From positions 1 through 26,707 of the forward strand of contig DASYXE010000542.1 in NCBI GenBank assembly GCA_035935375.1: a stretch of DNA of 26,707 nucleotides, in the 5' to 3' direction. Source of the DNA: Gemmatimonadaceae bacterium. GTDB taxonomy: Bacteria; Gemmatimonadota; Gemmatimonadetes; Gemmatimonadales; Gemmatimonadaceae. The notes under the pieces are model-generated. The model did not search any database and had not been told where the DNA came from. It saw only the letters and a program-made list of their open reading frames with translations. Below are positions 1 to 26,208 of the stretch, piece by piece. Positions within the stretch are counted from its first letter, which is position 1, and each line of letters opens with the position of its first letter. The position numbers and the translations under genes were made by a program.

Positions 1-732
1 GGCACCGTGGTTGTGTTGGGCGGAGACGGCACGCTCAAAGAGGTGGCCGGTGCATTGGCGCATTCCGGGCGTCCTGTGGGCATTCTGCCCGGAGGCACAG
101 GCAACCTCGTTGCCCGTTCGTTCGGGATCCCGATGGAGGCGGACGGGGCTGCGCGTGTCGTCTTGGAGGGGAGGACGGCCGCCATCGATCTCGGACGCGT
201 ACGAGGACACGGGACGACGCCGCACTGGTTTGCGTTCTCGGTGAGCGTCGGCGTCGATGTCCGCATGCTGGCACGCACGCGGTCGACTGCAAAGCGCTGG
301 TTCGGGCCGCTGGCCTACGCGACGACCGCACTCGCCGAGATGGTGGACTTCACGACGTTCCGGGCGCGCATTGCGATCGACAACGAGGCGCTGGAGCGTG
401 ACGCGGCGGAGGTGATGATCGCCAATATCGGGAGTGTGTTGAACGACTTGCTCGTGCTCGGGCCGGGGGTCCGGTCGAACGACGGCCGGCTCGATCTGTG
501 TCTCTATTCCCCCACGAACGCCCGACAGGCCATCGGAGTGCTGTGGCGCATGATTCGCCGGCGCTTCGATGCGCCCGACCGGCTGTTGTTTCGCACGGGA
601 CGGGTGTTCCGCGTGGAGTGCGATCCCCCGCAGGTGGTGCAGGCCGACGGCGAGCTAGTCGGCACGACGCCATTCGACGTCGAGATCGATGAGGGTGCCG
701 TGATGTTCCTGGTCCCACGAGGACGTAATTGA
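1..732 (+). CDS. Diacylglycerol kinase-family (YegS/DagK-like) lipid kinase, 5'-truncated by window edge
   Basis: GGDGT and PGGTGNxxAR catalytic-domain motifs; C-terminal QADGE motif; frame open from base 1. Confidence 0.88.
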   Translation, partial: GTVVVLGGDGTLKEVAGALAHSGRPVGILPGGTGNLVARSFGIPMEADGAARVVLEGRTAAIDLGRVRGHGTTPHWFAFSVSVGVDVRMLARTRSTAKRWFGPLAYATTALAEMVDFTTFRARIAIDNEALERDAAEVMIANIGSVLNDLLVLGPGVRSNDGRLDLCLYSPTNARQAIGVLWRMIRRRFDAPDRLLFRTGRVFRVECDPPQVVQADGELVGTTPFDVEIDEGAVMFLVPRGRN

Positions 733-804
733 CCGCGTCAGACCCGCGACTCACATTCGTCGGGGTCGTCGAGTCCCACGTCGCTCTCAGCTGACGGCCG
801 TCGC

Positions 805-24428: not shown

Positions 24429-25471
24429 GAGTCGAGCAATCCAGGTAAAGGCACCGATGCGAATGCGTCGAGCTCGAGCGGCGACCAGTCGCCGCGTTCG
24501 GCGTGGAATACGCCGGCGCGGGCGATCATCGCGGCGTTGTCTGCGGCGAGCCGCGGGCTAGGAGCATAGACGACTGCGCCGCGCGGCGCCAGGCGGTCGC
24601 GCAGCGCGGCGACGAGGGTTGCGTTGCACGCGACTCCGCCGCCCAACACGACGCGCGTGCGGTCGTACGCCTCGAGCGCGCGGACCGTCTTTTCGACCAG
24701 GGTGTCGATGAGCGCATCCTGAAATCCGCGCGCGATGTCGGCGCGGTCGCGCTCGAGATCGTCACTCGCGCGAACGGCGTTGAGCACCGCGGTCTTGAGC
24801 CCGCTGAACGAGACGTCGTAATAGTCGGCGTCGCCTGGCCGTTGGTCGGATCGCAACATGGGTCGTGTGAATCGAAAGTGCTGGCGCTCGCGCGTGCCGG
24901 TGCGTGCAAGTCGTTCGACGTGCGGACCACCCGGATACGGAAGCCCGAGCAGCTTGGCGACTTTGTCGAACGCTTCGCCCGCGGCGTCGTCGCGCGTAGC
25001 GCCGAGCAGACGGTAGCGGCCCCAATCTTCGACGTCGAGCAACATGGTGTGGCCGCCGGACACGAGCAGTGCCGTGAAGGGCGGGCGCGCATCCGGGTGC
25101 TCGAGCGTCGTGGCGAACAGGTGGCCTTCCATGTGGTGTACCCCGACCGCGCGGATGTGATTCGCCCACGCGAGCGTCTTCCCGAAGGTGGAGCCGACCA
25201 GCAGGGCCCCGACGAGTCCGGGCGCGAACGTGAACGCAACGGCATCGAGCGACGACGCGGTGGCGCCCGCGTCGGCGAGGGCGCGCGCGACGACGGGCAC
25301 GATGGCCGTGAGGTGCGCGCGCGACGCAAGCTCGGGTACGACGCCGCCGAAGATTTGGTGCGCGTCCTGCGAGAGGATGACTAACGACCGAAGGGTCACG
25401 TCCGGTCCCGCACCTTCGACCACGGCCGCGGACGTCTCGTCGCACGACGTCTCGATGCCGAGCACGCGCAT
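24425..25471 (-). CDS. tsaD: tRNA N6-threonylcarbamoyladenosine (t6A) transferase
   Basis: LGIETSCDET, GGVVPELASRAH, HHMEGH, LLVSGGHT, DDAAGEAFDK and DNAAMIA motifs. Confidence 0.98.
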   Translation of the reverse strand: MRVLGIETSCDETSAAVVEGAGPDVTLRSLVILSQDAHQIFGGVVPELASRAHLTAIVPVVARALADAGATASSLDAVAFTFAPGLVGALLVGSTFGKTLAWANHIRAVGVHHMEGHLFATTLEHPDARPPFTALLVSGGHTMLLDVEDWGRYRLLGATRDDAAGEAFDKVAKLLGLPYPGGPHVERLARTGTRERQHFRFTRPMLRSDQRPGDADYYDVSFSGLKTAVLNAVRASDDLERDRADIARGFQDALIDTLVEKTVRALEAYDRTRVVLGGGVACNATLVAALRDRLAPRGAVVYAPSPRLAADNAAMIARAGVFHAERGDWSPLELDAFASVPLPGLLDS

Positions 25472-26208
25472 CACGGCGCGCGCGTCGGCGTGGCGAGAAT
25501 GTGCAGCCTGATCTGCGGCGGCGACACGCGCATGTGCAGGCCGGCGGTGTCCACGGGGACCAGGAGATCGCTGACGGTGTCGTGCACTTCGATCTGCCGC
25601 CGCTCGGTGTAGACCGCGGTCAGCTTGCGCACGGCATCCCGCGGACCGCGCACGTCGACGCTCTCGGGCTCGACGTTAGGCGGACCCACCAGGTGCAAAC
25701 CGCTATCGGCCGAGATCTCGACCGCCGACCGAACCGGCACGCGGCGCGATTCGGTAATGCGGACGCGCACGCTCATCGCCGACGGCCGCACGTCGCGCAC
25801 GCGTGCATCCACGTTACTGGGCAGATCGACGTCACCGGGGCGCAGCGACAGCGTGACGCGCGTGGCCGTGTCGGCATCGATCACGCGCCTGAGCACCGGC
25901 AGGGTAGAGTAGAGCTTGAGCAGATCGCGGCCGCGGCCCACCACCAGCGCCTGCACCGGCGGCACGCTATCCACGAGCGTCACACTCGAGTCGTGCACCA
26001 GCGCGATACGCACATCGACCCATTCTTCGGTGGGCTCTTCGGCACTCACCGCCAACCACAGCACGAGCGCGAAAAACACGGCGGCGAGCTTGAGCGGCAG
26101 CCGCGCCATGGCCATGGATTGGAGCCGCTGCTCGATCGAGCGCGCGCGGGCGCCTAACTGCTGCCGTGGCGTGGGCAGGGGCGCGGGCGACGAGGGCGGT
26201 GGCACCAT
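25471..26208 (-). CDS. YbbR/CdaR-like membrane-anchored protein (start could be near 26115)
   Basis: Single TM (KLAAVFFALVLWLAVS) followed by two YbbR-like repeats (PVQALVVGRG; EPESVDVRGPRDAV). Confidence 0.75.
   Translation of the reverse strand: MVPPPSSPAPLPTPRQQLGARARSIEQRLQSMAMARLPLKLAAVFFALVLWLAVSAEEPTEEWVDVRIALVHDSSVTLVDSVPPVQALVVGRGRDLLKLYSTLPVLRRVIDADTATRVTLSLRPGDVDLPSNVDARVRDVRPSAMSVRVRITESRRVPVRSAVEISADSGLHLVGPPNVEPESVDVRGPRDAVRKLTAVYTERRQIEVHDTVSDLLVPVDTAGLHMRVSPPQIRLHILATPTRAP

Follow-up and report, generated by a model that had tools for sequence, protein, structure and literature searches.

Uptake sequences are described in one recent account only for two families of host-associated Proteobacteria, the Neisseriaceae and the Pasteurellaceae (10.1101/2025.10.24.684340), and the receptor for the uptake signal sequence (USS) of Pasteurellaceae appears in another as a prediction, so far unproven, that it is the minor pilin ComN (10.1101/2025.06.16.659825). 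The USS (9-bp cores AAGTGCGGT and ACAAGCGGT) is a short, non-palindromic word present about once per kb on both strands; it lies mostly in genes, in those frames that can accommodate it, has weaker flanks, even spacing and no replication polarity, and leaves an imprint on the proteome, the peptides that it encodes being over-represented. The DNA uptake sequence (DUS) of Neisseriaceae (GCCGTCTGAA and dialects), whose receptor is the minor pilin ComP, is a lineage-specific, hyper-abundant word that also forms inverted-pair terminators. HIP1 (highly iterated palindrome 1; GCGATCGC) of cyanobacteria is a lineage-specific palindrome with methylated sites, occurring about once per kb in coding sequence against codon expectation, and Chi (GCTGGTGG in E. 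coli, 5-8-mers elsewhere) is a short, asymmetric, over-represented and species-specific word that runs in the direction of replication and has RecBCD or AddAB as its reader. The core site of integrons, found in attI and in the R' box of attC, has the consensus G/TTRRRY. Here we analyse the heptamer GTTRGGC, which is dispersed over both strands of a 26,707-bp stretch of DNA from a Gemmatimonadaceae bacterium (contig DASYXE010000542.1 of assembly GCA_035935375.1, hereafter 'the window'). No paper describing GTTRGGC as a genome-wide word, or uptake sequences in the phyla that carry it, was found in the literature searched, in keeping with the first-pass annotation of the window, which knew of no described motif with this sequence.

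All of the properties listed above for the USS are shared by GTTRGGC. It differs from the USS in its hosts, which are Gemmatimonadota and Verrucomicrobiota, in having a 7-bp core with an R, in being built from the rarest codon of its genome and in crossing phyla; for GTTRGGC, an uptake bias is a prediction. With the DUS it has in common lineage specificity, hyper-abundance, the presence of type IV pilus genes and the existence of dialects (GTTRGGC versus TCGTTAGGC), although its core is shorter. It resembles HIP1 in frequency, in lineage specificity and in sitting in coding sequence against codon expectation; the comparison is loose, however, because HIP1 is palindromic and GTTRGGC is not. The first-pass annotation had called the word HIP1/DUS-like, and it is the uptake-sequence half of that description that we favour. 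We tentatively propose that GTTRGGC, or more fully TnC-GTTRGGC-r, is a lineage-specific, uptake-sequence-like self tag that may be kept by biased DNA uptake and recombination.

The window is the whole of its contig, the longest of 647 in a 3.5-Mb assembly (G000; 67.5% GC, 77% complete), in which genes were called de novo (2888 genes covering 84% of the genome). Unless another genome is named, the results below refer to this source genome. Dinucleotide shuffles served as the null for the window, and Markov models of orders 1-5 together with a within-gene synonymous-codon shuffle as nulls for the whole genome. There are 4340 copies of GTTAGGC, about one per 800 bases, and 2432 of GTTGGGC, giving an overall GTTRGGC density of 1.93/kb. 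The Markov expectations for GTTAGGC are 127, 115 and 507 at orders 1, 2 and 3, corresponding to 34-, 38- and 8.6-fold excesses, and under each of these orders GTTAGGC is the top-ranked over-represented 7-mer of the genome. The signal vanishes at orders 4-5 because GTTAGG and TTAGGC hardly occur outside the word; a maximal-order Markov null is uninformative for GTTAGGC. In the window itself, a recount returned the 28 GTTAGGC copies of the first-pass annotation at identical coordinates (18 plus, 10 minus), where dinucleotide shuffles expect 0.68 and reach a maximum of 2. The enrichment of GTTGGGC also held, with 35 copies against 3.24 expected, a number somewhat above the hand count of about 32. 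G precedes all 28 TTAGGC, as had been claimed, and 35 of 37 TTGGGC, for which a single exception had been reported.

The signal resides in DNA and not in codon pairs. Compared with the synonymous-codon shuffle, a null that is conservative because the inflated TTA count is retained, GTTAGGC is 22-fold enriched in the sense orientation (2534 observed, 115 expected) and 16-fold enriched in antisense (996 versus 63). Sense copies fall mainly in the frame G-TTA-GGC (2327), with 205 in GTT-AGG-C, and the two stop-free antisense frames hold 615 (the Pro-Asn class) and 381 copies; in the antisense frame that would make a stop codon there is not one copy in the called genes. A further 717 copies lie outside called genes, and the 83% inside them correspond to a density of 1.23/kb in coding DNA, compared with 1.3/kb in non-coding DNA. 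Across the genome, G precedes 2328 of the 2369 TTA-GGC codon pairs; a dicodon null therefore cannot account for the pattern. The same dependence is seen in the choice of leucine codons before GGC, where the share of TTA is 48% after G and 1% after C, and 74% of all TTA codons sit in G-TTA-GGC. The proposal of a DNA-level signal in the first-pass annotation is thus borne out by the nearly equal coding and non-coding densities, the antisense excess, the preceding G and the flanks considered next. That annotation had also asked for genome-wide counts against Markov and codon-shuffled nulls, which are those given above, and had named three outcomes that would tell against it; the word neither dissolves under a dicodon null, nor loses its preference for a preceding G, nor is confined to this contig.

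The bases that flank the heptamer show the same constraints whatever the frame class, and also between genes. C occupies position -1 at 56-92% of sites, T is avoided at +1, and T stands at -3 in 32-42% of sites as against 7-18% of frame-matched controls. Since these preferences are alike in all frames and in intergenic DNA, the recognized unit is about TnC-GTTRGGC-r. Some one-step variants are mildly enriched over the codon shuffle in both orientations (GTTGGGC 3-fold, GTTAGTC 3.6-fold, GTTAGGA 2.5-5-fold), and the neighbour GTTAAGC is found at 0.05 of its expectation. A dispersed repeat of the repetitive extragenic palindrome or miniature inverted-repeat transposable element type was considered and rejected, as the flanks show only weak single-base preferences and most copies lie in genes.

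The word takes precedence over codon usage and has altered the make-up of proteins. It spells 34% of the 9036 Leu-Gly and 51% of the 1819 Pro-Asn dipeptides of the source genome. Pro-Asn occurs 1.85 times per 1000 dipeptides, compared with 1.08 in relatives with few copies of the word (a factor of 1.7), and its observed/expected ratio is 1.51 versus 0.94. Site-by-site comparison with 94 orthologues from genomes of the same genus that have few copies, in which samples were small and the direction of change was inferred by taking the word as the derived state, separated two kinds of site. Sense Leu-Gly sites mostly lie on old Leu-Gly dipeptides, with GCTCGGC or GCTGGGC as the ancestral spelling, and amino-acid conservation at them (46%) is close to that at control sites (50%). 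At x-Leu-Thr sites, none of 11 retains the same amino acids in the orthologues, which mostly have Ala or Ser where the source genome has Thr. As a separate observation on codon usage, ARAGORN reported 28 tRNA genes in the source genome, with CAA and CAG as the only tRNA-Leu anticodons; tRNA-Leu(UAA) was not found in this 77% complete assembly despite about 3100 TTA codons, and its gene probably lies in the missing 23%.

Copies of the word are arranged evenly and without regard to replication. Spacing is under-dispersed (coefficient of variation 0.84), with 66 gaps of less than 50 bp where 246 are expected. Orientation of GTTAGGC tracks the gene strand (rho 0.64), and its agreement with GC skew is slight (52-54%). 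No replichore polarity was detected in two other Gemmatimonadaceae (92 plus and 116 minus copies over 170 kb of G004; 28 of each over 96 kb of G184) or in a closed Chthoniobacterales chromosome, where 532 plus and 518 minus copies over the 1.6 Mb sampled were balanced in each 100-kb segment. These counts answer the replichore check suggested by the first-pass annotation and agree with its statement that orientation follows genes and not one chromosome strand. Runs of plus-strand copies in a listing of family genomes had raised the candidate of a polar word like Chi or the KOPS (FtsK-orienting polar sequences); in the DNA fetched for G184 the counts were the balanced ones above, and the runs proved to be an artefact of listing order. 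A 6.7-kb contig of the source genome, C257 (L079:1-6698), is the sole stretch of at least 4 kb without any GTTRGGC (0 copies, with 12.9 expected). Its products are a protein more than 1700 amino acids long, with Ig-like, invasin and filamin repeats, and a MacB/FtsX-type permease, and the contig is probably recently acquired or mis-binned DNA.

Within the genus of the source organism, the distribution of GTTAGGC is bimodal: 12 genomes hold 2.7-6.2 thousand copies and 14 hold 10-100. We refer to genomes with many and few copies as rich and poor, respectively. The rich genomes are the closest relatives of the window (77-91% nucleotide identity, compared with about 71% for the poor ones). GTTGGGC is specific to the same clade: rich loci have about 1.5 copies per kb and poor loci almost none. 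A and G are swapped at the same aligned GTTRGGC sites among rich genomes. Because GTTGGGC is clade-specific and interchanges with GTTAGGC at shared sites, its assignment to the same phenomenon, as in the first-pass annotation, is supported. In a 12.8-kb alignment of eight rich genomes, GTTAGGC sites were kept exactly in 70% of comparisons, versus 31% for all 7-mers, figures that overstate independence because the aligned genomes are kin (80-87% identical). Across the family (201 Gemmatimonadaceae genomes in 77 genera, including three unpublished genomes, G044, G071 and G169, on which no claim rests), counts are graded from about 10 to 8700 per genome, with large differences inside several genera; one assembly of 7.5 Mb in only four contigs, G076, has 5148 copies. 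The word is therefore lineage-specific, as had been suggested, and the survey of related genomes places it in many independent assemblies. In one poor genus, g37, an inverted pair GCCTAAC...GTTAGGC with starts 11-12 bp apart recurs in three genomes (G130:C84:153619-153637, G210:C53:5185-5203 and G177:C4:56367-56384); it resembles a palindromic operator that has nothing to do with the word spread over rich genomes.

A second phylum carries the word in a dialect of its own. A scan of species-representative genomes for two nearby copies of CGTTAGGC returned, in addition to many Gemmatimonadaceae loci, 22 loci from metagenome-assembled genomes of Chthoniobacterales, Verrucomicrobiae and Spartobacteria. 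These 22 Verrucomicrobiota loci contain 1.16 GTTAGGC per kb over 173 kb, a density somewhat inflated by the selection of loci. Flanking bases are more strictly constrained here: 82% of copies have T at -2 and 93% have C at -1. The dialect reads TCGTTAGGC, and GTTGGGC is not enriched in these loci. Whole genomes of rich Verrucomicrobiota contain 2571-3943 GTTAGGC, versus 740-1030 copies of the reversed word. Among 151 Chthoniobacterales genomes, six have 850-2200 copies of the 9-mer TCGTTAGGC (about 70 for the control), about ten are intermediate and the rest have 0-40. A weak excess was also seen in one Steroidobacteraceae metagenome-assembled genome (1104 GTTAGGC versus 774 for the control). 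The occurrence of one word in two or three phyla calls for horizontal spread of a reader or for some other common cause. It is conceivable, though doubtful, that Gemmatimonadota, Verrucomicrobiota and perhaps Steroidobacteraceae owe the word to a single reader that spread horizontally, either as a shared tag channelling DNA exchange or protection across phyla or as the footprint of a genome-marking system distinct from uptake sequences, Chi and HIP1.

Taken together, density, absence of polarity, even spacing, tolerant frames, a weak flank, a proteome imprint, dialects and site conservation make the statistics of GTTRGGC fit an uptake-sequence-type tag better than any other known class. If the word is such a self tag, a DNA-binding part of the type IV pilus or competence apparatus would prefer fragments carrying GTTRGGC; word-bearing DNA from relatives would then have a better chance than other DNA of being imported and of recombining with the chromosome, and molecular drive would write, and keep, the word wherever coding constraints allow. 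The uptake bias and the protein that would read the word are the parts of this proposal that we infer from the pattern of sites. The machinery itself is present: the source genome has ComEC, PilT, two PilA-like pilins and one minor-pilin cluster. ComEC was found in 184 of the 201 Gemmatimonadaceae and in 143 of the 151 Chthoniobacterales, and PilT in 200 of the 201 Gemmatimonadaceae. The three genera wholly without ComEC are all poor and no rich genus among the 77 lacks it, a pattern that is the sole directional clue among the mechanism tests and amounts to a hint. All six strongly rich Chthoniobacterales have ComEC. In an intermediate Chthoniobacterales genome (318 copies of TCGTTAGGC), an in-frame TGA splits the ComEC match into two open frames (G284:C9:459447-460251), which may reflect a decaying competence gene or an assembly error.

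Several results weigh against a self tag read by the uptake machinery. ComEC and PilT are near-universal in rich and poor genomes, so that both were discarded as discriminators and their presence does no more than permit the uptake model. A ComP-type receptor is not supported: matches to ComP_DUS (PF16732), the family of the DUS receptor, do not track the word, and the best of them are in a poor genus. Unlike the DUS, the word forms no terminator-like inverted pairs in the source genome. No gene that tracks the word was found; the candidates tested include the methyltransferase, Vsr and ComP families whose co-occurrence the first-pass annotation had recommended checking. Moreover, we know of no uptake sequence that extends beyond a single bacterial family, whereas GTTRGGC occurs in two or three phyla. 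Our confidence in the proposal is only tentative because no reader was found and because sharing across phyla is without precedent among uptake sequences. A search for genes shared by the source genome and 1.6 Mb of a motif-rich Verrucomicrobiota chromosome gave no standout in identity, the top matches being unannotated, and a comparison of pilins showed no likeness beyond the N-terminal helix. When viral contigs were scanned for the word, most matches were low-GC loci in which the copies lie close together, and one was a provirus whose excess was modest (22 copies, 11 for the control); five motif-rich genomes were searched for an HK97-capsid prophage and none was found.

A reader might instead act inside the cell, sparing or repairing word-bearing DNA and degrading DNA without the word by a logic like that of Chi, and indifferent to orientation. 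This is unlikely in our estimation, although copies are dense enough on both strands to be reached soon from any DNA end, different species share the sites, and a horizontally mobile system would fit the presence of the word in unrelated soil phyla. GTTRGGC does share with Chi the character of a short, asymmetric, over-represented and species-specific word of 7-8 bp, but it is several times denser and, in three genomes of which one is a closed chromosome, unpolarized. Neither of the two known readers of Chi turned up in the rich clade: RecC was not found in five genus genomes searched (four rich, one poor), and the PDDEXK_1/AddAB nuclease domain was found in none of the 12 rich genus genomes, five of them at least 95% complete, as against 11 of the 14 poor ones. 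The rich clade thus seems to be without both classical double-strand-end processing complexes. Loss of AddAB as a cause of the word was rejected, since across the family several of the richest genomes have the domain and most poor ones are without it; AddAB presence is unrelated to word density at that level, so the pattern in the genus reflects one event in one clade. Moreover, an intracellular system of this type would, when first acquired, attack a host still lacking the word. Biased repair or gene conversion, in which sequence-specific mismatch correction turns near-matches into the word with no selected function, was proposed as the drive behind HIP1, and Vsr acts in this way on CCWGG. 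We regard it as improbable here. It would account for extreme enrichment against codon bias, for the interchange of A and G at the same sites and for the strong depletion of some one-step neighbours such as GTTAAGC, but the shuffle null inflates the expectation for neighbours that contain TTA, so that much of this apparent depletion is artefactual. Creating TTA from CTC or CTG requires several changes toward A/T, which no known short-patch system makes. Vsr (PF03852) and C5-methyltransferase (PF00145) families were not found in the source genome and five rich genomes at least 95% complete, on which grounds a Vsr/Dcm repair drive was rejected; the C5-methyltransferase result is a further difference from the methylated HIP1. 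The lone N6-methyltransferase-like gene found in the source genome encodes an Eco57I/MmeI-like protein of 1172 amino acids with DUF7814 (C27; L078:1846-7565) and is directly followed by a gene for a 739-residue SNF2-family helicase. The methyltransferase gene is kept throughout the genus (58-87% identity); genes of the restriction-modification type are not usually so conserved. The pair was rejected as the reader, being present in rich and poor genomes alike and having no homologue in the sampled 40% of a motif-rich Verrucomicrobiota genome.

Even spacing, uniform coverage of contigs and irrelevance of orientation would suit a binding site for an abundant nucleoid-associated or chromosome-organizing protein, kept by selection on chromosome structure, and the size of the extended footprint, about 10-11 bp, is right for one bound protein. 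We nevertheless give this little credence: nucleoid proteins are not known to require an exact heptamer roughly once per kb within genes, close relatives manage without the word, and a rise in copy number from about 20 to about 5000 inside a single genus points to a strong drive rather than to weak structural selection. The first-pass annotation had left the choice open between a DNA uptake or recombination tag, a nucleoid-protein site and a methylation or repair target; we favour the first, and the last is weakened, in its Vsr-Dcm form, by the families not found. It is very improbable that the genome is a field of secondary sites for an integron integrase. GTTRGGC fits the core consensus of integron and Xer-type sites (GTTRRRY), GTTAGGC being a valid core spelling, and integron integrases above the curated cut-off were found in 114 of the 201 family genomes. 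By hand comparison of tables, however, integrase presence is about equal in rich and poor genomes, the source genome has only Xer-level matches, and the integrase was accordingly dropped as a candidate reader. Unlike the cores of attC, copies in the source genome are isolated: close inverted GTTAGGC pairs are not enriched, and no attC-like hairpins surround them. Nor is there an apparent benefit that would drive about 5000 copies. In two genomes of a sister family in the same order (G021 and G023; for example G021:C43 and G021:C80), GCCTAAC/GTTAGGC pairs about 83-125 bp apart recur every ~500 bp; they look like integron attC cassette arrays using the GTTAGGC word as R''/R' boxes, and are the other observation favouring an integron site. 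That the pattern stems from an error of assembly or base calling at a modified site, or simply from codon-pair bias, can in practice be excluded. Most copies do lie in one codon frame at first sight, but those in antisense, in other frames and between genes are enriched to the same degree, and different species share the sites. The word also occurs in dozens of independent assemblies, closed chromosomes among them, which to judge by their record titles come from different projects and assemblers.

In the window, the 63 GTTRGGC copies (28 GTTAGGC and 35 GTTGGGC) form a dispersed array spanning 15..26158 on both strands of the whole contig. By pattern count, GTTAGGC starts on the plus strand at 1803, 2610, 3557, 4823, 6647, 6773, 7154, 7789 and 8441 in the first half of the series and at 8793, 9135, 10173, 10278, 11274, 16621, 17464, 22450 and 25675 in the second, and on the minus strand at 5295, 10728, 14330, 14851, 15253, 19710, 20259, 21660, 21861 and 26152. 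Gene calls confirmed that 24 of the 28 read G-TTA-GGC in the sense frame, and that the remaining four (5295, 10728, 22450 and 25675) are antisense to their gene, as first described. The main class is exemplified by the plus-strand copy at 1803..1809, which reads xxG-TTA-GGC (Leu-Gly) in the sense frame of a PAS/histidine-kinase gene (805-3138), and the antisense class by the minus-strand copy at 5295..5301, where the strand of the plus-strand gene 5086-5853 reads G-CCT-AAC (Pro-Asn). Both forms stand side by side on the plus strand at 6647..6662, in an EamA transporter gene, with GTTAGGC at 6647 and GTTGGGC at 6656. At 14330..14348 on the minus strand, GTTAGGC (14330, alignment column 7761) is kept in all eight aligned rich genomes and GTTGGGC (14342, column 7773) in some; a plus-strand GTTAGGC in an amino-acid permease gene (16621..16627, column 10058) is likewise kept in eight of eight. 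In two different minus-strand frames of the window, the long open reading frames 20818-22710 and 21543-23381 share about 1.1 kb. The histidine-kinase domains HAMP, HisKA and HATPase_c occur only in 21543-23381, and 20818-22710 is probably a spurious shadow frame of a high-GC genome.

The skew that the word imposes on codon usage (74% of TTA codons) and on dipeptide frequencies is relevant to gene calling, to codon-based prediction of expression and to binning. Its distribution raises the question of why one spelling should recur in two or three unrelated phyla, and why it should be that of the integron core site. If GTTRGGC is indeed an uptake tag, it would provide a handle on recombination barriers in soil communities, and its presence in abundant, little-studied soil phyla would mean that gene exchange among bacteria generally gives rise to words of this genome-wide kind.

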